Below, piece after piece: positions 3,877 through 63,677 of a stretch of 64,000 nucleotides of DNA. Every line of letters begins with the position of its first letter. Within the stretch, counting starts at the first letter, position 1. This stretch comes from Escherichia coli (GTDB lineage: Bacteria > Pseudomonadota > Gammaproteobacteria > Enterobacterales > Enterobacteriaceae), in the NCBI RefSeq assembly GCF_044324875.1, contig NZ_CP172185.1. The stretch is one strand, 5' to 3'. The notes beneath the pieces are model-generated. The model saw only the letters and a program-made list of their open reading frames with translations. It had not been told where the DNA came from and ran no database searches. A program made the position numbers and the translations under genes.

Positions 3877-4001
3877 CAGAATTTAATCAAGGGCGGTTAG
3901 CGCCCTTTTCATCCCTGTCTGAAATTTCTCAAATTCTAAAAATCTCAACCAAACTTATCTGATAACACTAAATTCGAAAGAATGCGTACAGGTAAGTAAC
4001 A

Positions 4002-5612
4002 ATGAAAAAAATTGCTATTGTGGGTGCCGGGCCTACGGGGATCTACACCTTATTCTCGCTTCTAAAGCAACAAACTCCACTTTCTATTTCTATCTTCGAG
4101 CAGGCTGATGAAGCCGGTGTCGGGATGCCATACAGTGATGAGGAAAACTCAAAACTGATGCTGGCAAATATTGCCAGTATTGAAATACCGCCGATTTATT
4201 GTACGTATCTCGAATGGCTACAAAAGCAAGAAGCCAGCCATCTCCAGCGTTATGGCGTCAAAAAAGAAACCTTGCACGATCGTCAGTTTTTACCGCGAAT
4301 TCTGCTGGGCGAATATTTCCGCGATCAATTTTTACGATTAGTAGACCAGGCACGACAGCAAAAATTTGCGGTGGCTGTTTATGAATCATGCCAGGTTACC
4401 GATCTGCAAATTACAAATGCTGGCGTCATGCTCGCTACAAATCAGGATTTACCCAGCGAGACGTTTGATTTAGCAGTGATCGCCACGGGTCACGTCTGGC
4501 CTGATGAAGAAAAAGTAACCAGAACGTACTTTCCCAGCCCGTGGTCAGGCCTGATGGAAGCAAAGGTCGATGCGTGTAACGTGGGTATTATGGGAACATC
4601 CTTGAGCGGACTGGATGCGGCAATGGCAGTGGCTATTCAGCATGGTTCGTTCATTGAAGATGATAAACAACACGTCATTTTTCACCGCGATAACGCAAGT
4701 GAAAAGCTAAATATTACGTTAATGTCGCGCACAGGTATTTTACCCGAAGCCGATTTCTATTGCCCTATTCCCTACGAGCCCTTACACATCGTCACTGATC
4801 AGGCATTAAATGCTGAGATTCAAAAAGGCGAATATGGCCTTTTGGATCGGGTATTTAGATTGATAGTAGAGGAAATCAAGTTTGCTGATCCAGGCTGGAG
4901 CCAACGCATAGCCTTAGAGAGCCTGAATGTCGATTCCTTTGCTCAAGCCTGGTTTGCCGAGCGCAAACAACGCGCCCCATTCGACTGGGCAGAAAAAAAT
5001 CTCCAGGAAGTCGAACGCAATAAACGAGAAAAACATACTGTTCCCTGGCGTTATGTCATTCTGCGCCTGCATGAAGCAGTACAGGAAATTGTTCCACATC
5101 TGAATGAACACGACCATAAACGGTTCAGTAAAGGCCTTGCCCGGGTTTTCATCGATAATTATGCGGCAATCCCTTCAGAGTCTATTCGTCGACTACTGGC
5201 CTTACGTGAAGCGGGAATCATTCATATTCTCGCCCTCGGTGAAGACTACGAAATGGAAATTAATGAGTCGCGCACCGTCCTGAAAACGGAAGACAATAGC
5301 TACTCGTTTGACGTTTTTATTGATGCCCGCGGGCAGCGTCCGCTTAAAGTGAAAGATATTCCTTTCCCTGGACTACGCGAACAATTACAGAAAACAGGGG
5401 ATGAAATCCCTGATGTTGGCGAAGATTATACGCTACAGCAACCCGAAGAAATTCGTGGGCGCGTAGCGTTCGGCGCGTTGCCCTGGTTGATGCACGACCA
5501 GCCATTCGTACAGGGACTTACGGCATGTGCAGAAATTGGTGAGGCGATGGCTCAGGCGGTCGTAAAGCCTGCATACCGTGCTCGTCGGCGTCTTTCGTTT
5601 AATCAAATGTAA
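4002..5612 (+). CDS. ydhS: FAD/NAD(P)-binding protein
   Basis: 536-aa ORF; N-terminal IAIVGAGPTGIY dinucleotide-binding motif. Confidence 0.8.
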   Translation: MKKIAIVGAGPTGIYTLFSLLKQQTPLSISIFEQADEAGVGMPYSDEENSKLMLANIASIEIPPIYCTYLEWLQKQEASHLQRYGVKKETLHDRQFLPRILLGEYFRDQFLRLVDQARQQKFAVAVYESCQVTDLQITNAGVMLATNQDLPSETFDLAVIATGHVWPDEEKVTRTYFPSPWSGLMEAKVDACNVGIMGTSLSGLDAAMAVAIQHGSFIEDDKQHVIFHRDNASEKLNITLMSRTGILPEADFYCPIPYEPLHIVTDQALNAEIQKGEYGLLDRVFRLIVEEIKFADPGWSQRIALESLNVDSFAQAWFAERKQRAPFDWAEKNLQEVERNKREKHTVPWRYVILRLHEAVQEIVPHLNEHDHKRFSKGLARVFIDNYAAIPSESIRRLLALREAGIIHILALGEDYEMEINESRTVLKTEDNSYSFDVFIDARGQRPLKVKDIPFPGLREQLQKTGDEIPDVGEDYTLQQPEEIRGRVAFGALPWLMHDQPFVQGLTACAEIGEAMAQAVVKPAYRARRRLSFNQM

Positions 5613-6433: not shown

Positions 6434-7219
6434 TTAGTGCCGGTGATAGCCATCGACCATGCTTTTAAAGGTTTCGTGTGGCGTACGCCCCGTGGTGCAA
6501 AGATAAAGATGACCGAAGATAAAAAAGAGGCTTATAAATGCCAGAGCAAAATGCGCCTGCAATAACCAGTATCTTACACCAGGAAACACATCTCCCACGG
6601 CTTGCGGATAGAGACACAGCAGCCCCGTCAATAGTAACAACGGCAGCAATCCATACATGACACCAATATAGGCAACCTGCTGTAAGGGATTAAATTTAGA
6701 CTGGGTTGTTGCCGGGAAAGGATGTTCTTCCCCCTGCATAATGCCAAACAAATAAAATCGCGTTTGTTTTGCCGCTCGCTCCAGCCACCCCTGACGACGA
6801 ATGCGATAGTGGTGACCATTACCCCCAACGGCATTGATCAGAACAAAGCCGAGCCAACATGCCAGTAACAAAAATCCGCAAACTTCATGCACCGCAACCA
6901 GACTTTTAACCGCAGTTGCGCCCACCAGCGCAAAGTGATTTATCAGCCCACTTGCCAGCAACAATACAAAGAGTAACGCATTCGACCAGTGCCATAATCT
7001 GACCGCTTTGCTGTAAAGATAAACCTTCTCACCATGGTCGGTGGCTGATTTCTTCACGCCACGAGCACGAAGCAAGGCATGCAGCCCCAGCACAAACCAC
7101 ATCCCTACCAGCAATAGTCCGGCAATGATCAACCACACCGGCCAAAATTGGGGAGTGAACTGTGGCACATAGTTCGCCAACTGGCTCTGAAACTGTTCAG
7201 CATGTTGCGACGGGTTCAT
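6434..7219 (-). CDS. ydhU: membrane b-type cytochrome-like subunit
   Basis: 261-aa ORF with several hydrophobic helices; 4-bp overlap with ydhX. Confidence 0.8.
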   Translation of the reverse strand: MNPSQHAEQFQSQLANYVPQFTPQFWPVWLIIAGLLLVGMWFVLGLHALLRARGVKKSATDHGEKVYLYSKAVRLWHWSNALLFVLLLASGLINHFALVGATAVKSLVAVHEVCGFLLLACWLGFVLINAVGGNGHHYRIRRQGWLERAAKQTRFYLFGIMQGEEHPFPATTQSKFNPLQQVAYIGVMYGLLPLLLLTGLLCLYPQAVGDVFPGVRYWLLQAHFALAFISLFFIFGHLYLCTTGRTPHETFKSMVDGYHRH

Positions 7220-7884
7220 ACATTTTCCTTTTTAATCAAATGTTGACCGAACCGGCGATACAGGTGCGGTTTCCCAGCACCAGGTAGCTGATATTGATAG
7301 TATTTATTTTCCTGCAACCACGCCTGAATTTCTGGGCTATCTTCGCGACCAAAGATCAATGCGTGTTCCGGACAGGCGCTGACGCAAATGGGCGGAAAGC
7401 CTTTTGCCAGTCGGGACTCAGCGCAGAAATCACATTTATCTGCCACTTTAGTGACAGGGTTAAGGTAGCGAACCTGGTAAGGACAAGCGCCAATGCAATA
7501 ACTGCAGCCGATGCACTGCGATTTTTCTACCCGCACGATCCCCTGCTCATCACGCCACGACGCCCCTGTCGGGCATACGTCGATGCAAGGAGCATCTTCA
7601 CAGTGCTGGCATGACTGGCGAAAATAGTGATACTGCGTTTCGTTGTCGTTATCGGTGACTGGAATGTGTGCTATCGATAAACGGCTTCCCTGAGCGGGGA
7701 CGTGGTTAGTTTTACGGCATGCGCGGGCGCAAATATTACAGCCATTGCACCGTGACTCGTCATGAATCATGGCATACCGAACTTTCTTTTCTTGCCTCGT
7801 GTTCGCTAACAGAGAAGACGCAGAACCAGTAAAAAAGATTACTGTTCCCATCCCCAGAACAAATTTGCGTCGAGTGAAGGACAT
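7216..7884 (-). CDS. ydhX: ferredoxin-like 4Fe-4S protein with Tat signal
   Basis: Twin-arginine motif RRKFVLG after the internal Met; several CxxCxxCxxxCP clusters; start chosen at the internal Met (222 aa). Confidence 0.75.
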   Translation of the reverse strand: MSFTRRKFVLGMGTVIFFTGSASSLLANTRQEKKVRYAMIHDESRCNGCNICARACRKTNHVPAQGSRLSIAHIPVTDNDNETQYHYFRQSCQHCEDAPCIDVCPTGASWRDEQGIVRVEKSQCIGCSYCIGACPYQVRYLNPVTKVADKCDFCAESRLAKGFPPICVSACPEHALIFGREDSPEIQAWLQENKYYQYQLPGAGKPHLYRRFGQHLIKKENV

Positions 7885-52025: not shown

Positions 52026-52080
52026 GGTATCCGTTCTGCTGAAGTGTCATGGCGTTGATTTTACGGTGACTCTTCGACAG

Positions 52081-52108
52081 TGAAAAGAAAAAAGGCCGCA
52101 GAGCGGCC
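52081..52108 (-). terminator. rho-independent terminator (minus strand) between prophage gene 52215..52610 and btuC
   Basis: Minus strand reads ggccgc tct gcggcc followed by ttttttcttttc. Confidence 0.55.
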
Positions 52109-52214
52109 ATAATTGCAATCAAAAATCAATAATTTAAATACTTATCAATCACTTAAGAACACATTAAAATACAAGCAACCACGCAAAACGACGTGAATGT
52201 GGTCACTTTGTGGA

Positions 52215-52610
52215 TCATTCGTCCCCTTCTTTCTCTTTGTTCTGTTGAACGCTAATTGCGACACACGTAGCAATCAAATCTTTACATTTCTCCATATCTT
52301 CTGTCTTGCGCAACTTGATGCTTGCCACCGATTGTGGATTATCCGCTGTGGCACAATGCATTGTTATTTCAATGTCGTTTCGATGAAAGAGTCCCATAAT
52401 AGCTTTTGCAACCTCCGTCCCTTTTTCCGCGATATCAAAGATCAAAGCAAGTTTATACAAAATATCACCAGAAAAACACTCAACCCTGCTAAGACCAACA
52501 TCACATAATGAAAAATATTGCTCAACGTCCCCCTGGAGTTCGGGAGCACACACAATATCTATTTTTCCGTACTGGCCTGAATAAAAGTCACTATTAACTG
52601 TTTTTTTCAC
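52215..52610 (-). CDS. hypothetical protein coupled to the 3' end of int (unknown function)
   Basis: GTG at 52610 preceded by a perfect AAGGAGG SD; start overlaps the int stop by 17 nt (track ORF begins at an upstream TTG, 52631). Visibly AT-rich relative to flanks. Confidence 0.6.
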   Translation of the reverse strand: MKKTVNSDFYSGQYGKIDIVCAPELQGDVEQYFSLCDVGLSRVECFSGDILYKLALIFDIAEKGTEVAKAIMGLFHRNDIEITMHCATADNPQSVASIKLRKTEDMEKCKDLIATCVAISVQQNKEKEGDE

Positions 52611-53595
52611 AACATCCTCCTTCTTCAGCAATTGGATTAAACCTCACCGCATCCTGCAAATAATCCGGTGCAAGATGGGCATAAATCATCGTTGTCTGAA
52701 TCTTTGCGTGCCCCAGAATTTTCTGGAGCGTCAGAATATTGCCGCCGTTCATCATGAAATGACTGGCGAAAGTGTGGCGCAGCGCGTGAACGGCCTGCCC
52801 GTCAGGAATGGAAGGGGCAACCGCTTTTATCGAATCGCGCACCAGTGAATAATCCAGCGCCGGAAATACCAGCTTTCCGCCCCGTTTTTTAATTTTGTCA
52901 AACAGGCTTTCAGAAATTGGAACAGTCCGGTTTTTACTGTTTTTGGTTCTGGAAAATGTGATCCGGGAATGCAGAACGCGGCGCTGTTCAAGTGCCACCA
53001 CCTCACCCCATCGCGCCCCGGTAGATAAAAGAATTTCAGTAGCTAGCCGTTCGTCGGGATGCTCTACCAGAACGTCAAGCAGCTGGAGGCACTCCTGCCT
53101 GTTCAGATACCCCATTTCGCGCTCGCTGACCTTCATCCCTTTCAGTCCGCTAACAGGGTTATCATTCTGGAAGTGACCGGATGAGATGAGTGCGGAAAAC
53201 ATCGCGCTAAGCGCACCAACCTCGCGGTTTATGGTACTTGGCTGAATCCCCTCCTCCGCTCTTGCCACGCGTAATTCCGTTAACGTGGTGGCGTTGACGT
53301 TGTTAACACGCGGATCCCCCATCGCTTCACACACGCGCTGTAATTTGAGGCGTGTGTTCCACCCCGATTTCATCAGTTGCCCGTGAAACTTCCACCATAA
53401 TTCGATAAGTTCGGACAACGAACGGCGATCGGTCGGCGCACTGTTCCATGCGTTATTTTGGTGTTGAGCTAAAACCCAGCGTTCGAACTGGATAGCCTCC
53501 GACTTTGTTTTGAACTTTTTACGAATGCGTTTACCTTTGCGCCCATCAGGACGCATATCAACCATGTAGCCACCAGGGATTGATTTTATGCTCAT
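52594..53595 (-). CDS. int: tyrosine-type site-specific integrase (P2-like)
   Basis: C-terminal HALRHTFASHF...LGHAKIQTTMIYAHL catalytic region; start set at MSIKSIPGGY. Confidence 0.9.
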   Translation of the reverse strand: MSIKSIPGGYMVDMRPDGRKGKRIRKKFKTKSEAIQFERWVLAQHQNNAWNSAPTDRRSLSELIELWWKFHGQLMKSGWNTRLKLQRVCEAMGDPRVNNVNATTLTELRVARAEEGIQPSTINREVGALSAMFSALISSGHFQNDNPVSGLKGMKVSEREMGYLNRQECLQLLDVLVEHPDERLATEILLSTGARWGEVVALEQRRVLHSRITFSRTKNSKNRTVPISESLFDKIKKRGGKLVFPALDYSLVRDSIKAVAPSIPDGQAVHALRHTFASHFMMNGGNILTLQKILGHAKIQTTMIYAHLAPDYLQDAVRFNPIAEEGGCCEKNS

Positions 53596-53644
53596 TGGCA
53601 TACCCCCAGCGTCACAAGCCCACCGTGCCCCCAGCGTTCCATAA

Positions 53645-53953
53645 TCAGCCGTGCAGTGTGCCAGTCTTGCGGACTTTTTGAGAAGGTGATGTGCTTTCTG
53701 GCCCATCAGGGGAGAGAGTCGGGCTGATCTGCCCAGCAGCCTCGTTTGTTTTTCCCGTCATGAGCCAATTCATGTACTTAAAAAAACGAGGATGATTAAC
53801 AATCTTGACGAGAGCTTCGCCGCCGACATTCTCAATCCGACCTGTCTCATAACGGCGTAGAGTACCGATAGGTACATCAATCAGTTCACAAAACTCTTCA
53901 CGCGTTAACCCTTCCGACTCACGAATTACTCTGATTTTTTCACCAATAAACAT
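53645..53953 (-). CDS. P2 C-type immunity repressor
   Basis: 102-aa HTH protein immediately upstream of and co-oriented with int, divergent from the early operon. Confidence 0.7.
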   Translation of the reverse strand: MFIGEKIRVIRESEGLTREEFCELIDVPIGTLRRYETGRIENVGGEALVKIVNHPRFFKYMNWLMTGKTNEAAGQISPTLSPDGPESTSPSQKVRKTGTLHG

Positions 53954-53975: not shown

Positions 53976-54018
53976 GTATTCTTGATTTCAAGGTGTACTT
54001 ATAAGTACACAAGAATAC
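53976..54018. promoter_or_regulatory. operator/promoter region between repressor and early operon
   Basis: Perfect 18-bp palindrome GTGTACTTATAAGTACAC (53993..54010) flanked by gtattcttg / caagaatac; TTGACA at 53954..53959. Confidence 0.6.
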
Positions 54019-54050
54019 AAATAGCCACAGACTGGAAAGGTTACCACATC

Positions 54051-54329
54051 ATGACAAAAGTCTTGAACACATACGGGGAGACGGACTTCAACAAGCTGGC
54101 GGCAATGTACCCCTACCGTGATGAGCATGGACTGCCAGTTCTTGAGGAAAGCCTTGAGGACTACGCCAAACGAACCAATCAAGCCCTGAACACTGTTAAA
54201 AAACAGGTCGACAGAGCGCAGATCCCTATAAATCAGCATAAAAAAGGCGGGAAACGCACAGTAAATCTCTACGCAATTTTTCTGAAAACCATCATAAACG
54301 CAGAGAAATATGTACTCATGACGAAATAA
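54051..54329 (+). CDS. first early-operon gene in the Cox/Apl position (putative small DNA-binding regulator)
   Basis: 92-aa ORF from the ATG at 54051 with ggaaagg RBS; function by position only. Confidence 0.5.
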   Translation: MTKVLNTYGETDFNKLAAMYPYRDEHGLPVLEESLEDYAKRTNQALNTVKKQVDRAQIPINQHKKGGKRTVNLYAIFLKTIINAEKYVLMTK

Positions 54330-55382: not shown

Positions 55383-55598
55383 ATGAGTAAACCACTAACC
55401 AGCATTGAGCGAAAAATTGTTTTTATGAATGTGGCAGGCGTGCAGTTCGAAGTGGATAAGCAGGTCATCGTCTCCGAAACGAGATGCCCGGCAGCAGGTG
55501 AGCAATGCACCTACCTGACACTGGCAGACGGCACGCAAATAACCGCCGTCACCGACACCATTCGCGAGCTTGTGATTATCAGAGGGGTTAAACGATGA
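55383..55598 (+). CDS. hypothetical early protein
   Basis: 71-aa ORF with aaggag RBS. Confidence 0.55.
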   Translation: MSKPLTSIERKIVFMNVAGVQFEVDKQVIVSETRCPAAGEQCTYLTLADGTQITAVTDTIRELVIIRGVKR

Positions 55599-55807
55599 CC
55601 AGCAAATACACCACCAACGCACGCAAGCCAGGCAAGGAGGCACGTCATCACATTGCCGTTCTGCGCAATCTCATCATGTGCGAAATCGACGACTTTGTGG
55701 CGGGACTGGGCCAGCCGGGCGAGCCAGCAACACCGGGCGAAATACACAAAGAACTACGCCGCCGCATAGAAAGCGCGGTGGATTACGTCATGAACCCGAA
55801 CGACTGA
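55595..55807 (+). CDS. hypothetical early protein
   Basis: 70-aa ORF, ATGA overlap with previous gene. Confidence 0.5.
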   Translation: MTSKYTTNARKPGKEARHHIAVLRNLIMCEIDDFVAGLGQPGEPATPGEIHKELRRRIESAVDYVMNPND

Positions 55808-55847
55808 CCAGAACGCGAGCGCGCGCCGGATGACGCACGCATAACGC

Positions 55848-56333
55848 TTAGCGGGAAGCGCCAACCGTAAGGCTGGCAATGATTTTTTCGGAGAGTGAGA
55901 GAGATTCGCGATGATTAAGACCAAGAGCAGCACAAGCTTTATTGCGCGCCGGGTTGTCCATGCATTCAAGCACCGGAGAGTCCTGCTTCTCAATTTCCAC
56001 CAGTCGCGCCAGCAACACCTCCGTGCTGAGACCGTCGCTTTCAGTAATCAGGACGTTATAGCGATGAGCCTGTTCTTTTGCAGCCTGAGCGCGTCGCCCA
56101 AATTTCCAGGCGATATTGCAGCCACTAAGCACAGCCACGATACCACCCAGCAACCAACTGAAATTGCTGTCTGCAAACACAGTAGCCCCAGACGTAAGGA
56201 TGACAGCATTAATCACCGTATCCATACGGCGGTTAAACACCTCCGAAATATGTTCAAGCCAGTAACTGTTCCAGAGACGAAACATGACCTCGTGTCGCCG
56301 TTCGGCATGATTTTCAGTTGGTTGTCTGTTCAT
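55848..56333 (-). CDS. 2-TM hairpin membrane protein encoded antisense to the early operon
   Basis: 161-aa ORF with AGGAGGG SD 10 nt upstream of the ATG; two adjacent hydrophobic helices (TVINAVILTSGATVFA / WLLGGIVAVLSGCNIAW) flanked by charged helices. Confidence 0.6.
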   Translation of the reverse strand: MNRQPTENHAERRHEVMFRLWNSYWLEHISEVFNRRMDTVINAVILTSGATVFADSNFSWLLGGIVAVLSGCNIAWKFGRRAQAAKEQAHRYNVLITESDGLSTEVLLARLVEIEKQDSPVLECMDNPARNKACAALGLNHRESLSLSEKIIASLTVGASR

Positions 56334-56576
56334 TGCGGTTTAACCCTCCTCATCATCTCGCCCCTGCCCTTTTTCAGGCGCGGGAGCCGGTTGCCGTGGC
56401 ACATGAAATTTATCGCTATCAGACATTTATTTTTTCCCGTGTGTTGTTGAACAAAGTGCCCGCACAGTTTTGACGGAACGGCGGGCGCTTCAAGCGTAAC
56501 ACACCCTTCTTTTCCGGTTGAAGGCGAAAAAAACCGGACAGCTACCCGACACAAACCAGACCAGCGGAGAACTGCC

Positions 56577-57131
56577 ATGTACGCACTTAAACCTATGGGG
56601 ATACCAGGCAAAGCCCCGGCGCATGTGAAAGCCTGGACACAGCAGGAAGATGATTTGCTGATCACCCTGTACCCGCAGCACACAGCACGAGATATCGCCG
56701 GGCGTCTGGGGCGCAGCCACGAAGGCGTGAAGAGCCGCATTTGTCGTCTGCGTGAACAGGGCAGGATTGGCATCAAGCAGCAAAGACTAAGCGATGAGAT
56801 GATCGCCACGCTCATCAGGAACCGCCACACCAGGTCCCTCAAGGAACTGGCACACATGGCGAAAGTTTCGACACGCACGGTAACCAACCGATTGAGGGCG
56901 CTGGGCTACAGCCTGATCAAATGCGGGGATCTGCATAAAAACACCGTCTACAGCGACCGCATCGTTGAGATTATCAGACAGTTACACGACGAGCAGGGCC
57001 TGACGTTCAGGGAAATCGCACAGCGCCTTAGCCACGAACTACAGCCGAACCCTACCCCGACACTGGCTCAACGTCTCTACTGGCGGTGCACAGCATCCGA
57101 CGCCGTATTCCGTGAACTGTTACCAGATTGA
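56577..57131 (+). CDS. DNA-binding protein with three tandem HTH (Myb/SANT-like) repeats
   Basis: 184-aa ORF with ggaga RBS; three ~45-aa repeats each containing an HTH-like segment. Confidence 0.55.
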   Translation: MYALKPMGIPGKAPAHVKAWTQQEDDLLITLYPQHTARDIAGRLGRSHEGVKSRICRLREQGRIGIKQQRLSDEMIATLIRNRHTRSLKELAHMAKVSTRTVTNRLRALGYSLIKCGDLHKNTVYSDRIVEIIRQLHDEQGLTFREIAQRLSHELQPNPTPTLAQRLYWRCTASDAVFRELLPD

Positions 57132-57454
57132 GCAATCACCATGTACACACAAAAAAACCGCTTGCAACAACAAACCGGAACAGGGTACGCTTCCCCCGCA
57201 CCTCATAAAGCGGGTGCCGGGTTTCGCAGCCTGCTGACTAGCAAAGCGCACAACCGCGCCAGCGGTTTTTTTGTGCGTACTGTATTGCCACGTCTTTTTC
57301 GCATCAGAATTATGGTGGGGCGTACGGGGCCGACTTCGGTCGGGCCGGTTTCTTCGTTTGCCGGTGTTGAGAACCCCGTACGTCTCGCCACCCCGAGATT
57401 CTCAACTCTGGTTGGTGAGTATCCAAAAACTCACAAACGAAGAGGCCAAACACC

Positions 57455-57673
57455 ATGGCAAACCGCAAACAGCGCCGCGCTATCGCTGCGCAGCGTCACA
57501 TCCAGACCGAAATCAACCGCAGACTCTTCCGCGCCCACAACATCGCGCGAATCATGCACGCCAACATGCTGCATGAACGCAGTAACGCGTTATCAAACCT
57601 CTATTCCGCTTCCGTTTTCAGCTATCTGGCGGACGACCTGCGCGAGCTGCAAGACCTCATTAACCAGCACTGA
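57455..57673 (+). CDS. hypothetical protein
   Basis: 72-aa ORF with aagagg RBS. Confidence 0.5.
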   Translation: MANRKQRRAIAAQRHIQTEINRRLFRAHNIARIMHANMLHERSNALSNLYSASVFSYLADDLRELQDLINQH

Positions 57674-57745
57674 TAAACAACCCGAAGCCATCCTGCGCCC
57701 GTTCGCGGGAGGCTTCCGCACATCTGTAGTCGGGAGGATTGCGCC

Positions 57746-58114
57746 ATGATTCTGGCTGACGATTTTCTGGAGTACCTGAACAACACCGAGCGCGACCTGT
57801 ACGCGCGCGTTCTCACCCGTTACGAGAAATACAAACTTTCGCTGCCAGAACATCAACTCCGCGAAGGCGATATCGACATTGAAGGGCGCTACATCGTCAG
57901 GCACCTCATAGCGGGCTACGGCATCTGGCGTGTCACCGGACGTGAGCATTCATTGCTGACCATCTGCCAGAGTCCGTCCGGCGTGATAACGGAGATCGTC
58001 GCTGATAGTCTGCGACTCACCCATCACAGCGCCACCCCGGAAGAAACGCTGGCAGAAACCCAGCGTCTGTGTCGCGTCATTGCCAACGCCGCCCTCCGCG
58101 CAGACAGGAGGTAA
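57746..58114 (+). CDS. hypothetical protein immediately upstream of gene A
   Basis: 122-aa ORF with gggagg RBS; 3-nt gap to the A start. Confidence 0.55.
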   Translation: MILADDFLEYLNNTERDLYARVLTRYEKYKLSLPEHQLREGDIDIEGRYIVRHLIAGYGIWRVTGREHSLLTICQSPSGVITEIVADSLRLTHHSATPEETLAETQRLCRVIANAALRADRR

Positions 58115-58117
58115 GCG

Positions 58118-60292
58118 ATGGAGTTCGTCAGAGACTGGCAAAAACCGCGCCCCGCTATCGGGCGCGAAGGCTTACCCGTACCTGAAACCGCACTGGATAC
58201 CATCCTGAAGTGTTACCGCGCGGACGAAGAGCGCGCCCTGAACGCTGAAGAGCAGGGTCATCCGCTTGCGGGCACAACCATCGGTAACGCGATCGACAAG
58301 TGGGAAGGCGCACAGGAGCGCCAGGAAGAGGCCATCACGCTCACACAGGAAGCGAAGAGACGCCCACCCACCCTCATTGAGGAAACCCTCAAAGAGCTGG
58401 ACACCCTGCCAAAGTGGTTGAGGCTGCCACTGATTAAGTACCTGAACTTCTTAAGGCGCAAACAGGAGGACGAACAGCAGAAAGGCAAGCGCGGCAAGGA
58501 CACCCGCAAATATGAGCGCTTCCTGAAAAACGGCATCCCCGCACGTCTTCGCCGTATTCGTGAGATTAACGCTCGCTTTGCACCGTTAAGTTTTCAGGCC
58601 GCTGCCATGCGCGAGAGTCTGGAAGAGTTAATCACACTGCCGAACCTGAGCCGTGAACGCATCCAGAAAATAGCCGTACTGCTTGCCAGCGCCGTTAAAA
58701 TGCATCTTGCCGACGCAATGGACAAGGCCCGCGAAATAACAGGGAACGACAAAGACGACAACCTGAACAACTGGCTGATTGCCTACCAGTATATTGGTCG
58801 CCGTGTCCTGAAGCTGGGGATCACCCCACCATACTGGAGCGCCCTTGAACTCCGTCCCGACCGCAGAAGCCCCCCGGACCTGACACTGGTACCGGGCGCT
58901 GTTTTGCGCCTGAACGACGCCGAATGGTGGAATAAAAAACTTCGCCAGATGCACGACGTCTGGCGTGAGGAACTTTTACGTGCAGCGGGCCTTGTATCCC
59001 GCCAGACCTCCATTTATGTGAGCCGGGAAGCGCTGGCAGACTTCCGCGAGAAACAGGCCCGTACCCGCGATTTTCTCAAAGCGCACGACGTGGAGAACGA
59101 AGACGGCGAACGCATCAGCCTGGAAGATATCTACTACGCCAGTACATCCAACCCGCATAACCGCCGCAACGAGATGATGGCGTGCGTCAAGGGAATGGAG
59201 CTTATCGCACAGGAACGTGGCGACGTGGCCTTCTTCGTCACGGTCACAGCCCCGTCTCGTTTTCACAGCGTCACCGACGCCGGTACCCTTAACCCGAAAT
59301 ACAAAGGCACAACAGTAAAAGACGCCAGCGACTATCTGGTTTATAACTTCTTCGCCTCCGCCCGCAAACTCATCAAAAAAGAGAAGCGGGGCTGGTACGG
59401 CATTCGCACCGTGGAGCCTCACCACGACGGCACGCCCCACTGGCACATGCTGGTATTCACAAGCCCCGAGAACGAAGCGCGCATCACGGAAATCATGTGC
59501 AATGCCGCCATCCGTGAAGACCGTGCAGAGCTGGGCGACGACATTACCCCGCGCTTCAAGTGCGAGAAGATAGACCCCGAAAAAGGTACGCCAACCAGCT
59601 ACATCGCCACCTACATCGGCAAAGGCATTGACGCCGCCGCATTCGGCGACACGGATCCCAAAACAGGCAAACCGCCCGTTGACCACGAAAGCGGAAAACC
59701 TATGGCGGACACCGTGGAAAACGCCGTCGCCTGGGCACGCCTGCATCGCATTCGCCAGTTCCAGTTCTTTGGCCTTCCCTCACGTCAGGTGTGGCGCGAG
59801 TTCCGCCGCCTTGCCGGACAAATGGCACGCAACCCGAAGGGGCCGCAGGCACTGACCAACCCCAAAGCCGACGCCCTCCTTGTTGCAGCCGATACGGGGT
59901 GTTTTGCCAGCTACATCATGCATCAGGGCGGTGTGCTCATTCCCCGCAGTGAATATCTGGCCCGCACGGCCTACGTCACCGCAGAAGAGCCGAACAACTA
60001 CGGCGAGTTCCCCGACCGTATTTACGGTGTACGGATGCCGGAACTGGGCGATGAGTTCACGTTATGTACCCACCCGGAAGAGTGGAAAATCGTCAGAAAG
60101 GAACCGGAACCAGACAACCGCACGGGCGAGGGTTTTGACCTTCAGGGCGACCCCGTCGCCCCTTGGACTCGTGGCAATAACTGTCACCCTGACGAAAAAA
60201 ACAACCAACAACAGCACACAAACAGAACAGTCAGAGTGGGCAAAACTGCCCCCCTTACCCCCATCGTCGGACGGTTTTGTGAGCTGGTTTAA
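58118..60292 (+). CDS. replication initiation endonuclease (P2 gpA / 186 A family, rolling-circle)
   Basis: 724-aa ORF with caggagg RBS; HDGTPHWHMLVF metal-binding motif and YIATYIGKG active-site tyrosine region. Confidence 0.85.
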   Translation: MEFVRDWQKPRPAIGREGLPVPETALDTILKCYRADEERALNAEEQGHPLAGTTIGNAIDKWEGAQERQEEAITLTQEAKRRPPTLIEETLKELDTLPKWLRLPLIKYLNFLRRKQEDEQQKGKRGKDTRKYERFLKNGIPARLRRIREINARFAPLSFQAAAMRESLEELITLPNLSRERIQKIAVLLASAVKMHLADAMDKAREITGNDKDDNLNNWLIAYQYIGRRVLKLGITPPYWSALELRPDRRSPPDLTLVPGAVLRLNDAEWWNKKLRQMHDVWREELLRAAGLVSRQTSIYVSREALADFREKQARTRDFLKAHDVENEDGERISLEDIYYASTSNPHNRRNEMMACVKGMELIAQERGDVAFFVTVTAPSRFHSVTDAGTLNPKYKGTTVKDASDYLVYNFFASARKLIKKEKRGWYGIRTVEPHHDGTPHWHMLVFTSPENEARITEIMCNAAIREDRAELGDDITPRFKCEKIDPEKGTPTSYIATYIGKGIDAAAFGDTDPKTGKPPVDHESGKPMADTVENAVAWARLHRIRQFQFFGLPSRQVWREFRRLAGQMARNPKGPQALTNPKADALLVAADTGCFASYIMHQGGVLIPRSEYLARTAYVTAEEPNNYGEFPDRIYGVRMPELGDEFTLCTHPEEWKIVRKEPEPDNRTGEGFDLQGDPVAPWTRGNNCHPDEKNNQQQHTNRTVRVGKTAPLTPIVGRFCELV

Positions 60293-60608
60293 GTCGCTTA
60301 AGAGGCCGGACAGGAAAAAACTACAAAGATTGCTCAAAAAACGCACCGAAGAGAGTCGCCAGAACGCCAGCGGCGGCACCGACACACCCACCGACACCAT
60401 TAACCTGGGCGTTGTGCTGCCGGAACTGCCGGAAATCGTGCAAGTCCGCCGCGATCTGGAAGCGCTGGGCGCGGACTTCCCCGAAGCAATGGCCCATTCC
60501 GTCTTTATGGGTGCCCGCGTTCGTCTGGGTGACGGTCGCACCGTTCACCGCGACGAGCAGACCGGGCGCATCACCGTCACCAGTCTGCAACCGGAGGCGA
60601 AACCATGA
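60279..60608 (+). CDS. possible small protein coupled to the A stop (start uncertain)
   Basis: In-frame GTG at 60279 overlapping the A stop; C-terminal part looks coding and ends in an ATGA overlap with the next gene. The upstream part of track ORF 59880..60608 lies inside A in another frame. Confidence 0.35.
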   Translation: MSWFKSLKRPDRKKLQRLLKKRTEESRQNASGGTDTPTDTINLGVVLPELPEIVQVRRDLEALGADFPEAMAHSVFMGARVRLGDGRTVHRDEQTGRITVTSLQPEAKP

Positions 60609-61015: not shown

Positions 61016-61278
61016 AAAGAATCGCCGGAACTGACTACCAGGAGCTGCTTAAAGCGGTGGAAAACTACCGTTCAGCGCTGGTGTGGTGTGAGATTAAGCC
61101 CTGTGACCCGGGAGCAGTTAAGGATTGCAACCGGGCGCGTGAGGACATTCAGCGCGTAATTGGCTACCGCTATGTAGCAGCCATTATTGACCTTGTGAAT
61201 GAACTGGAGGAAGCAAAAGAGCGCATCGCAGAACTGGAAACCCAGAATAACCCCAACCAGCAGGAGCAGAAGCCATGA
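61012..61278 (+). CDS. hypothetical protein
   Basis: 88-aa ORF, ATGA overlap on both sides. Confidence 0.5.
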   Translation: MKRIAGTDYQELLKAVENYRSALVWCEIKPCDPGAVKDCNRAREDIQRVIGYRYVAAIIDLVNELEEAKERIAELETQNNPNQQEQKP

Positions 61279-61856
61279 AAAAAAGAGACCTTAAAAAACA
61301 CCTCCGTAGTCAGATTGAATATTTTGAAGATAAGGCTGCAAAAACAGGGCTTTCCGGTAAAGAGAACATGAACTTCAGGGCACACCTCCTGACGTGGAGA
61401 ATACTTAATATCACGAGAGATGGACTTGAGCCGCTAGCCTACCTGATGGAAGATGGCGAGACCCTCATACAGGATCCCAATGTGGAAATGGAGAAGAAAG
61501 AGATGGACCTGCCGATAATCGGGCTGTTTGAGATCCCTGAACTAATAGGACGTTATGAACACGAAAACCGCCAGCTTGCCGCCTTTTTATCCGTGACAAT
61601 CGAACGACTGGAAGCCGTGAAACACGATATTCCGTTCGGTTTTGATGAGCGCACCGAGGGTGATTTGCTCAGCTTTCAGATTGCCCTGAACGTGCTCACC
61701 GCAGAGCCTTCTGCGTGGCTACGCCCGGAACGGCACCACAACACGTTCGCATTTACCGTAATTCCCTACGATGCCGCACAGGAAGAGGATAACTTCGAGA
61801 CCAGGCTTGTTCCCCTGTATCAGATTGCGGATTTCTATACGTTGATTCGCTGGTAA
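61275..61856 (+). CDS. hypothetical protein, last gene of the coupled block
   Basis: 193-aa ORF followed by a strong terminator. Confidence 0.55.
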   Translation: MKKRDLKKHLRSQIEYFEDKAAKTGLSGKENMNFRAHLLTWRILNITRDGLEPLAYLMEDGETLIQDPNVEMEKKEMDLPIIGLFEIPELIGRYEHENRQLAAFLSVTIERLEAVKHDIPFGFDERTEGDLLSFQIALNVLTAEPSAWLRPERHHNTFAFTVIPYDAAQEEDNFETRLVPLYQIADFYTLIRW

Positions 61857-61870
61857 TCCCCCACAGTAAA

Positions 61871-61895
61871 ACAGCCCGACCGGGCTGTTTTTTTA
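61871..61895 (+). terminator. rho-independent terminator ending the early/replication operon
   Basis: acagcccg ac cgggctgt followed by ttttttt. Confidence 0.8.
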
Positions 61896-61951
61896 TCTGA
61901 TATTTTTGATAACGTTGACCGGCTCATTAGCAAAAAAGCAAAGAGGAAAAC

Positions 61952-62338
61952 ATGAAAGCCCGTATCGGGATCATCCCGGAAAAAGCCCTGCGCCAGCACC
62001 TGATTGATATTGCCAGAGGGAAGCGAAAACCACAGCCCGACGAGCCAAAGGTATGGTTTTCATCCATCAATGCGGCAGGCCAGACGCTGAGCAATGAAAA
62101 TATCGCCCTTCTGCGTCTTATGAATGAGGAGAAGCCGCAGACCATGACCGCACTTGCGGAGTTATCCGGCAGAAAACTGAGCAACCTGTCTGTAACCCTG
62201 AAAATGCTGAGCAGCTACGGTTTTGTCAGTCTGGAAAAGAAAGGGAATACTGTACACCCGAAAGCACTTTTTACCGATTTTGAAATCATCGTTGATCCGT
62301 CCGTGGGTTCAGTACATCGCGCCACCGCCCGGCCCTGA
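61952..62338 (+). CDS. putative winged-helix transcriptional regulator
   Basis: 128-aa ORF with aagagga RBS; HTH-like segment MTALAELSGRKLSNLSVTLKMLSSYGFVS. Confidence 0.55.
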   Translation: MKARIGIIPEKALRQHLIDIARGKRKPQPDEPKVWFSSINAAGQTLSNENIALLRLMNEEKPQTMTALAELSGRKLSNLSVTLKMLSSYGFVSLEKKGNTVHPKALFTDFEIIVDPSVGSVHRATARP

Positions 62339-62350
62339 AGTGCGCAATAA

Positions 62351-62375
62351 ACAGCCCCGTTCGGGGCTGTTATTT
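62351..62375. terminator. bidirectional terminator between convergent genes
   Basis: acagcccc gttc ggggctgt with T-rich flanks on both strands. Confidence 0.7.
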
Positions 62376-62748
62376 ATTCCAGAATCAGCTGTTCAGGTGT
62401 GCAGCCGTACAGTCTGGCAAGGCGCTCAATATTTGCCCTGCGCGGGCGTTCCGTTCTTTCGAATTCGGACACGGTAGCCTGCCTGATACCCAGCGCATCC
62501 GCCACCTGCTTTTGCGTCATTCCGCGATAGATTCGCCACGCCGCCTGCATTGTGCAGCCACGCTCCGAGAGAATGTTAACCACCTCGTTGGGATACAGCG
62601 TATCAGGCGATGCACACGGTTCGTTCTGGACGTCCTCGTAGAGTTCGTCAAGGTCGCTGTCTCCTGCCAGTTTTTCAAACAACGCCACTGGCAGAATGAC
62701 GGACACCCTGTTACCCGCACCGTCAGTAATAAACTGAATCTGACTCAT
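62374..62748 (-). CDS. HigA-like antitoxin (XRE-family HTH at C-terminus)
   Basis: 124-aa ORF with aggaggg RBS; C-terminal MTQKQVADALGIRQATVSEFERT HTH. Confidence 0.65.
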   Translation of the reverse strand: MSQIQFITDGAGNRVSVILPVALFEKLAGDSDLDELYEDVQNEPCASPDTLYPNEVVNILSERGCTMQAAWRIYRGMTQKQVADALGIRQATVSEFERTERPRRANIERLARLYGCTPEQLILE

Positions 62749-62802
62749 TTACCCCTCCTGCTAAACATCGGTTTATTTTTTAATTTGCTGCCGGTGATAA
62801 AA

Positions 62803-62821
62803 AACGGCGGGTCGCCCCGCC
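62803..62821 (-). terminator. intrinsic-terminator-like hairpin between toxin and antitoxin ORFs
   Basis: Minus strand reads taa-ggcggg gcga cccgcc-GTTTTTT immediately after the toxin stop. Confidence 0.5.
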
Positions 62822-63073
62822 TTAGTATGTTGTCGAGGTTCTCCGCTGAATACGGAGGATCCTGATAACCACTATCTGCCCTCCCTCAATCGTGAACCTG
62901 ACACGGTAATGATTTACCCTGAGTCTGTACTCCCCGCCCGAGTCAGTGAGCTTTTTAATATCCAGATTCTGGAACTTCGGATAGCCATAAAGCGCGTTAA
63001 CTTTCTCGCGTAAGGATTTCTGATCCCTCGCTGGCAAAACCCGTAAATCTTTGATTGCCCGAGGGGTCCACAT
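62822..63073 (-). CDS. RelE/ParE-superfamily toxin (HigB-like)
   Basis: ...KKLTDSGGEYRLRVNHYRVRFTIEGGQIVVIRILRIQRR pattern; start may be 63073 (MWTPRAIKDL) or 63094. Confidence 0.65.
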   Translation of the reverse strand: MWTPRAIKDLRVLPARDQKSLREKVNALYGYPKFQNLDIKKLTDSGGEYRLRVNHYRVRFTIEGGQIVVIRILRIQRRTSTTY

Positions 63074-63139
63074 GATTTCAGTCGTCATAAACACACCGGA
63101 AGCAAATTATTAAAGAGCCGTGCCCGCTGGCACACCTTA

Positions 63140-63183
63140 AATATAGGTTTTAACCCCTATATTGTCAAACAAAATCCCTATAT
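63140..63183. promoter_or_regulatory. repeat cluster upstream of the toxin gene, putative operator
   Basis: Inverted repeat AATATAGG-n8-CCTATATT plus a third CCCTATAT copy 13 bp further. Confidence 0.45.
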
Positions 63184-63677
63184 CATGAAGTAAAAAAGCA
63201 CCTCCCGCGACCTCCCTTTCCGGTGCACGAAAGTGCACAAATTTGCACAATTTTTTTGAACGACTTTTTGCCCTTCCGGCCCGTGTGGCGTCTGGATCCG
63301 TCGGGGATCCGTGCGTGCACGAAAAAAGGCCTTTTTCTGCGCGCAGGTGACGGGGGAACAGCCCGCGTTTCAGGGGGTAAATAGCATTCCCTGAACGATG
63401 TTGCAGTGACACAACAGAATGGCTGTATTTCTCACGCTGAGCGTGAAAAAGACGTAAGGGCTTTTGATTTGATGGGGTGAAAGATAAGGCCGTCAAAATC
63501 GCACTGAGGCAGCGAGAATATGTCGTCAGAGTTGCGGGGTTGCGTAAGCATCCGCCCGGCGATGATGGCTACAGGGCTGGAGATGTTGTGAAATTATCTG
63601 AAGGAATAACCAGCTTGCAGGAGAACCCGGGCAAAGTCAGAATAGCGGCAGGCATCAACTCAAAAGAGGATAATGTC

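Follow-up and report, generated by a model that had tools for sequence, protein, structure and literature searches.

What is a gene for a small membrane protein doing backwards in the middle of a phage early operon? The question is raised by a stretch of Escherichia coli DNA of 64,000 nucleotides (RefSeq assembly GCF_044324875.1, contig NZ_CP172185.1; hereafter the window), in which the left arm of a P2-like prophage (Peduoviridae, P88/Xuanwuvirus-type) occupies 52.6-60.6 kb. A protein of 161 amino acids (aa) with two transmembrane (TM) segments is encoded there against the direction of a rightward early operon of small genes, between the int, C repressor and cox-like genes and the gpA-type gene, next to a 184-aa protein built of helix-turn-helix (HTH) units. 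The whole is read here as a self-contained mobile two-gene moron that encodes a SLATT-like exclusion or abortive-infection effector expressed in the lysogen, a reading to which we give an even chance. The anatomy of the module and its moron status are held with much greater confidence and are very probably correct. The features are listed in Table 1.

Placement and distribution of the insert

In the DNA alignment of the window with two related loci that carry no membrane gene (L011 and L012), homology extended to ~55822 and resumed from 56577. The conserved 70-aa gene and the HTH gene, which are 26 bp apart in L011, are ~754 bp apart in the window, and the module is a discrete insertion between genes adjacent in related phages, as is characteristic of morons. 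Of 5426 complete E. coli genomes, 33 carried the insert, at three levels of divergence; E. coli Ch1 (NZ_CP127316) and CS5L (NZ_CP158311) are examples of lysogens with the module. By megablast, the whole segment 55600-57300 was found in 9 of the 5426 genomes and its last ~200 bp, comprising the 3' end of the HTH gene and the downstream part of the flanking early region, in ~980. The original prediction, made from the sequence of the window, had taken the locus for an antisense accessory insertion in a co-directional early operon, and this is borne out by the rarity of the module relative to its flank and by the clean boundaries against relatives without it.

The membrane gene was antisense to the surrounding phage operon in 16 of 16 neighbourhoods from P2-like, 186-like, lambdoid and Mu-like phages. 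Its positions comprised the space between cox and C, several spots in P2/186-like early operons, lambdoid PL operons and Mu-like late regions. Genes antisense to prophage lytic operons and equipped with their own promoter are a recognised accessory (moron) signature and are transcribed from the repressed prophage (10.1101/787010); the antisense orientation in all contexts therefore points to a moron-type accessory locus. With classical prophage morons the module shares the discrete insert, a candidate promoter of its own, the opposite orientation, the rare and patchy spread and the occurrence in several unrelated phage types. It differs from them in lying inside the P2-like early operon and not between gpA and gpQ, where the documented P2 defence hotspot is found (PMC9122126), in being a two-gene unit with a micro-open reading frame (micro-ORF), and in that the frame on the operon strand is kept open.

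The membrane gene and the HTH gene had been proposed to form a divergent cassette, that is, a regulator and an effector acquired jointly. They are indeed arranged divergently, 243 bp apart, and occur together in the window, in nine near-identical E. coli genomes and in L009. However, full-length HTH orthologues were found in the same slot, co-directional and without the antisense membrane gene, in L011 and L012 (49% and 37% identity over 181-182 residues), with a 26-bp gap to the upstream gene and with the isrK/C4/derepression-protein module next in line. Conversely, L013 and L006 have the membrane gene in the same slot but no HTH gene, and no HTH gene accompanies it in L003, L008 and all non-P88 contexts either. 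The boundary of the insertion falls exactly at the HTH start codon. Since each gene is found without the other, a joint regulator-effector cassette is very improbable, and by these sequence comparisons the HTH gene reads as an ordinary early-operon gene that neighbours the module by chance. Conservation of both genes as core genes at this position had been named in advance as an outcome that would speak against the proposal; the HTH gene is common at this position in the phage group, and the membrane gene is a rare accessory.

Table 1. Features of the prophage left arm and of the antisense insert in the window
Feature	Position	Strand	Basis or remark
Integrase gene	52594-53706	-	
C-type repressor gene	53645-53953	-	
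cox-like gene	53982-54329	+	
Conserved 70-aa early gene, left neighbour of the insert	55595-55807		
Inserted module, ~754 bp	55823-56576	-	Between the 70-aa gene and the HTH start; missing in relatives without the insert
Gene for 161-aa N-in/C-in two-TM protein (phrog_6315, SLATT-like, standalone)	55848-56333	-	ORF and homology
179-aa ORF, exactly complementary to the membrane-gene frame, spanning membrane gene and micro-ORF	55911-56450	+	Openness kept, sequence not
Upstream micro-ORF, 28 aa, MSDSDKFHVPRQPAPAPEKGQGRDDEEG	56340-56426	-	ATG and frame conserved in the alignment of upstream regions
GC-rich hairpin GCCCGC...GCGGGC, predicted 5' end of the module transcript	56458-56486	-	Stem conserved
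Candidate extended -10 element, GTGT TACGCT (pattern TGnTAnnnT)	56493-56502	-	Conservation
Terminator-like hairpin and T-run upstream of the candidate module promoter	56522-56550	-	GTCGGGTAGCTGTCCGGT then TTTTTTTCGCC (consensus scan)
Gene for 184-aa protein with three HTH units, resident early gene outside the insert	56577-57131	+	phrog_323, E 5.9e-29
gpA-type replication endonuclease gene, end of the rightward early run	58118-60292	+	

Membrane protein and its resemblance to SLATT effectors

The predicted two-TM protein on the opposite strand in mid-operon stood up to all three lines of analysis, namely, the ORF, the hydropathy profile and the AlphaFold2 (AF2) model. Hydrophobic segments were located at residues ~39-55 and 58-77 with a 4-residue loop between them and with basic cytoplasmic flanks (RR before TM1 and KFGRR after TM2). 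In the AF2 model, helices 7-54 and 59-101 formed a long hairpin, and a further helix (104-116) followed. The C-terminal cytoplasmic region of ~80 aa is conserved in the family. The protein matched phrog_6315, a family of unannotated function, at E 5.6e-51; its close homologues formed 24 clusters in Enterobacteriaceae, and the profile search returned 202 clusters at 50% identity, all standalone and of ~150-180 aa. Sequence-profile search of PDB and Foldseek search against PDB yielded just generic helical hairpins (E >0.1 and E >0.7, respectively), and a word-indexed homologue search with a broad alignment added nothing and gave no precomputed Pfam domains.

SLATT (SMODS and SLOG-associating 2TM) proteins are known as effectors of type I cyclic oligonucleotide-based antiphage signaling systems (CBASS), together with a CD-NTase (PMC11381338), and of DRT10, together with a reverse transcriptase and a noncoding RNA (10.64898/2026.04.29.721553). 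Two TM helices with flanking cytoplasmic helices, i.e., the SLATT-type core, were recovered for the 161-aa protein by hydropathy and AF2. Searches were made with the NCBIfam profiles NF033632 (SLATT_4) and NF033634 (SLATT_1) and with Pfam SLATT_1-6. SLATT_4, and less often SLATT_1, of NCBIfam was a recurrent match in 18 of 30 family members at E ~0.1 or better, always in the same register, with protein residues ~20-100 aligned to model positions ~20-105. The family consensus matched NCBIfam SLATT at E 7e-5 (22.7 bits) and the query itself at E 0.099 (12.5 bits, cutoff 55). The top Foldseek matches in AFDB50 were family members named SLATT or DUF4231 in UniProt, among them A0A5H9IHJ1, which is 77% identical to the query. 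The phrog_6315 family is thus SLATT-like and probably a distant homologue, outside the curated families.

In comparison to the SLATT effectors of type I CBASS and UG17/DRT10, the module protein is alike in size (~150-190 aa), in the two-TM hairpin core, which is preceded by a helix at the N-terminus and extended by cytoplasmic helices at the C-terminus, in the weak matches of profile hidden Markov models (HMMs) in the same register and in its location on mobile or defence-type elements. It differs in its scores, which stay below the cutoff, in the silence of Pfam SLATT, in the conserved upstream ORF of 27-48 aa that takes the place of a CD-NTase, SLOG, TIR or reverse-transcriptase neighbour, and in that its gene lies antisense within phage operons, not in a defence island. 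No CD-NTase/SMODS, SLOG, TIR or reverse-transcriptase gene adjoined the membrane gene in any of the 16 neighbourhoods, where ordinary phage early and late genes were its neighbours. The SLATT-like topology voiced in the original prediction gains real support from the recurrent, in-register matches, all of them below threshold; no curated cutoff was reached and Pfam gave no support.

Upstream region and proposed action of the module

The 243-bp gap between the membrane gene and the HTH gene (56334-56576) had been described as intergenic. Its length was right, but it holds a conserved 28-aa ORF, a conserved candidate extended -10 element and two hairpins. The stop of this micro-ORF and the ATG of the membrane gene are separated by 6 nt. 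The strong AGGAGG ribosome-binding site noted earlier is present as well, but it lies 11 nt from this ATG (minus strand ...GAGGAGGGTTAAACCGCAATG), within the last codons of the micro-ORF. An equivalent micro-ORF of 27-48 aa was found in 15 of 16 loci from P2-like, 186-like, lambdoid and Mu-like phages, whose membrane proteins are 25-60% identical to the query; the sole exception was L009, where the micro-ORF is frameshifted. All these micro-ORFs come with a Shine-Dalgarno sequence; their peptides carry the motif [FYL]-H-x-x-[RHK]-x-P-x-P and a tail that is acidic or rich in Pro, and 4-22 nt lie between their stop and the membrane-gene ATG. A comparison of the window with L003, made by eye, gave 10 synonymous and 7 non-synonymous changes among the 28 codons, and this share of synonymous changes (10 of 17) suggests, at the level of the sequence, selection on the micro-peptide. 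No PHROG family matched the micro-peptides. The gene annotations of L016, L020, L021 and L022 include the micro-ORF, and the 39-aa upstream ORF of L019 (Yersinia phage vB_YenM_42.18) is unannotated.

The upstream regions of six diverged loci were aligned (alignment A4). Invariant columns G99, T100, G101, T103, A104 and T108 coincided with the bases that define an extended -10 element, the upstream DNA of the six loci being otherwise diverged, and from this conservation we infer that the TGnTAnnnT element is a candidate for the own promoter of the module. Downstream of it, the stem of the hairpin at the predicted 5' end of the transcript was kept with other sequences, TCCGCC/GGCGGA in L009 and TGCCG/CGGCA in L003 and L008; the predicted fold energy of the 150-nt leader was not above that of shuffled sequences (z = -0.65). 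The CCGG...T-run element upstream of the candidate promoter was conserved in A4, and this hairpin with its T-run may serve as an insulator.

On the minus strand the module would thus consist, in this order, of an insulating hairpin, the extended -10 element, the 5' hairpin, the 28-aa ORF and the coupled 161-aa two-TM gene, the whole inserted backwards between two resident genes of a P2/P88-like early (lytic) operon. In the lysogen, where the C repressor silences the early promoter, the promoter of the module would fire. The membrane protein would reach the inner membrane and act on incoming phages, either as a gated, pore-type membrane disruptor in abortive infection or as an exclusion factor. 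By coupling or Pro-rich pausing, the micro-ORF could limit or adjust how much membrane protein is translated; alternatively, its product could be a small inhibitor of that protein. Upon prophage induction, head-on early transcription would collide with the module and shut it off. For an anti-phage function as such, the arguments for and against are judged to be in balance.

Several results weigh against this proposal. The scan of the 243-bp gap for sigma-70 consensus reported no promoter, the -10 hexamer TACGCT is weak with matches at 3 of 6 positions, and no terminator was clearly recognised 3' of the membrane gene inside the insert. The AF2 model of the 161-aa protein was of moderate confidence (predicted local distance difference test, pLDDT, 68), and its last 40 residues scored below 50. 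No family member exceeded the curated 55-bit NCBIfam cutoff, the best being P0121 with 28.9 bits. Pfam gave no SLATT match for the query and, among 71 family members, a single SLATT_fungal match (i-Evalue 0.095) besides weak two-TM noise of the ATP-synt_I type. PADLOC (PADLOC-DB v2) returned no match for the protein at E up to 1, and the module lies outside the P2 defence hotspot. All SLATT systems characterised to our knowledge include an enzyme as sensor or partner, a CD-NTase or a reverse transcriptase, and no such enzyme accompanies this module.

A rival reading is a non-lethal superinfection-exclusion protein, which would block DNA entry without pore formation or suicide and resemble SLATT only as one two-TM protein resembles another. 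A small N-in/C-in inner-membrane protein in the place of a lysogen-expressed moron, with SLATT scores under threshold, with no match in Pfam and with no adjoining sensor or enzyme, would fit such a role. Lambda RexB, P22 SieA/SieB and T4 Imm are small inner-membrane exclusion or abortive-infection proteins, and small prophage inner-membrane proteins of this kind act in the lysogen against other phages. No similarity to RexB, SieA, SieB or Imm was detected by PADLOC, PHROG annotation or Pfam, and topology and size are unlike those of RexB (4 TM) and SieA. Three observations count against pure exclusion, namely, the recurrence of SLATT_4 and SLATT_1 matches in a constant register (model positions ~20-105) that reaches past the TM segments, the presence of the family in P2-like, lambdoid and Mu-like phages with different injection routes, and the tightly coupled micro-ORF, which suggests dosage control of a dangerous product. 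Exclusion without killing is therefore considered unlikely. Transmembrane proteins of anti-phage systems have mostly been regarded as suicide effectors (PMC9122126).

The same micro-ORF could be taken as a sign that the module serves the prophage itself, either as an addiction pair of unstable peptide and membrane toxin or as a convergent-transcription brake on read-through into the C4, derepression and gpA genes that tunes induction. A small coupled ORF with a membrane protein does resemble small toxin modules, and the module stands head-on to the early promoter, immediately ahead of the immunity-like isrK/C4 RNAs and of gpA. A position-specific regulatory role is nevertheless at odds with the many positions of the module (cox-C, mid-operon, lambdoid PL and Mu-like late), and a mere transcriptional brake needs no protein-level conservation over 161 aa. 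We regard a service to the prophage as quite improbable, less probable than plain exclusion. If the SLATT-like module protects lysogens instead, it would be a very compact system, composed of a peptide of ~30 aa and a SLATT-like protein of ~160 aa with no enzymatic sensor. The gating of a SLATT-type membrane effector that stands alone would then call for an explanation, and the defence cargo of P2-like phages would extend beyond the gpA-gpQ hotspot.

Open frame on the operon strand and the surrounding prophage genes

In each of the 10 P2/186-like loci, a plus-strand frame ran without a stop through both the membrane gene and the micro-ORF; in three lambdoid loci, the same antisense frame had 4-11 stops, and the minus-strand protein was intact. 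The openness is due to the near absence of the sense codons TTA, CTA and TCA, which made up 0-3 of the 27-35 Leu and Ser codons. In binomial tests against local codon usage, P values of 4.8e-8 (L015), 3.3e-5 (L019), 3.6e-4 (L024) and 0.0025 (L009) were obtained, with 0.025-0.46 in the other loci; since the tested loci are related, pooling these values would make the evidence look stronger than it is. Two other accounts were considered and rejected. An open antisense frame is not a general trait of antisense genes here, as three other short ones (L011, L012 and L013) have 2-4 stops, and avoidance of the TA dinucleotide is not a sufficient cause, as several loci use ATA and GTA codons but neither TTA nor CTA.

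The open frame might be explained by the reverse assignment, with the plus-strand ORF as the real gene and the 161-aa ORF as its shadow. Its frame has no stop in any P2/186-like locus, a frequency above that expected from synonymous resampling, and a counterpart is annotated: the operon-strand shadow ORF at 3812-4477 of L019 is the coding sequence gp08 of vB_YenM_42.18 (NC_070913). The substitutions among homologues, however, fell mostly on the third codon position of the minus-strand frame (e.g., 29/20/68 at the three positions), so that protein-level selection is seen to act on the minus-strand frame. Between the window and L019, the antisense translation was 32% identical compared to 51% for the sense frame, the plus-strand ORFs had no PHROG match, and the stops in lambdoid homologues leave the minus-strand protein untouched. 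The plus-strand ORF is extremely unlikely to be the gene. It appears, from codon usage and conservation, that only the openness of this frame and not its product is selected.

P2 operons are subject to Rho-dependent polarity, and the Psu protein of P4 is named for suppressing it. Lambdoid operons are antiterminated, whereas the early operons of P2/186-like phages are without antitermination. We hypothesise that the open frame lets translation of the early mRNA continue through the insert and that its ribosomes so shield the downstream replication genes from Rho polarity; as the three other short antisense genes of related operons do not show the effect, this is offered as a hypothesis only. 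Antiterminated lambdoid operons would have no need for an open frame, which fits the contrast between the phage types. An opposite-strand frame that is open only in operons without antitermination leads to the testable idea that transcription-translation coupling limits antisense insertion, and, if the shielding idea is true, it would represent a previously undescribed constraint on cargo insertion in phage operons. The most far-reaching reading joins this selection for an open operon-strand frame against Rho polarity with a new sensor-less two-gene anti-phage (abortive-infection) system that spreads as an antisense moron among P2-like, 186-like, lambdoid and Mu-like phages; it is advanced only tentatively, and we consider it rather doubtful.

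In the isolated and functional Yersinia phage vB_YenM_42.18 (Peduoviridae), the membrane gene at 4001-4468, on the strand opposite to gp08, is unannotated, and its product is 51% identical to that of the window. The comparison corrects likely mis-annotations, namely, gp08 of this phage and the uncalled micro-ORFs. In L006, the open antisense frame runs in-frame into the region of an ORF of the 57141-57749 type, giving 456 aa in total.

The 184-aa protein had been predicted to consist of three tandem HTH-like repeats, and in the AF2 model (pLDDT 81) three consecutive three-helix units (residues 22-60, 73-108 and 127-169) coincided with the three positions of weak Pfam HTH matches, in agreement with that description. 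Consecutive three-helix units are also found in the Pax paired domain, the bipartite HTH of Tc3/Mos1 transposases and Myb repeats, to which weak structural matches were obtained; none was significant (best Foldseek E 6e-3, TM-score ~0.3), and the protein has three units, not two. Its orthologues are named 'SANT/Myb-like DNA-binding' or 'DNA-binding protein' by the Prokaryotic Genome Annotation Pipeline (PGAP), and PADLOC returned only weak generic HTH matches. In the closest relative, E. coli Ch1 (L001, NZ_CP127316; 99.4% identity), the HTH gene at 6978-7531 is annotated as fragments of 70 and 91 aa beside an intact membrane module, which suggests that the HTH gene is disrupted there.

The HTH gene is located directly upstream of an RNA-controlled region. 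An isrK-like RNA (57198-57272, plus strand, 64.7 bits) just after the HTH gene is followed by a C4 antisense RNA (57308-57395, plus strand, 79.2 bits), and a match to the c4 a1/b1 target at 57185-57237 was below threshold (23.3 bits, gathering score 46.7). The gene for a 'derepression protein' of 72 aa (57455-57673, plus strand) belongs to phrog_3688, with PF25738 in relatives. Together, the isrK-like RNA, C4 and the derepression gene (57185-57673) are a P1/P4-type RNA-controlled antirepressor module within the P2-like early operon. A putative coding sequence of 202 aa (57141-57749, plus strand) overlaps both RNA genes and, in another frame, the derepression gene; in relatives it is given as 'ash family protein' or 'transcriptional regulator', or is uncalled.

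The gpA gene is apparently frameshifted, with an ORF of 724 aa in the window and the remainder in another frame (59880-60608). The homologue of E. coli Ch1 has 829 aa and 97.4% identity, with a single 1-nt gap against the window by BLAST; the frameshift may reflect a defective prophage or a sequencing error. Downstream of gpA, the cargo-hotspot region of L001 (11573-13065) encodes a DUF6516 protein, two HTH regulators and a RelE-family toxin, and its counterpart in the window is 61275-63500. At the host/prophage junction, beside a btuC-like gene, a weak Rfam match to the enterobacterial small RNA STnc540 was seen at 52026-52147 on the minus strand, below threshold with 29 bits compared to a gathering score of 38. 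Other small antisense hypothetical genes (60-107 aa) are located earlier in the early operon of L011 (2479-2802), L012 (1733-1915) and L013 (2418-2609), and antisense cargo may be a recurrent feature of P88-like early operons.

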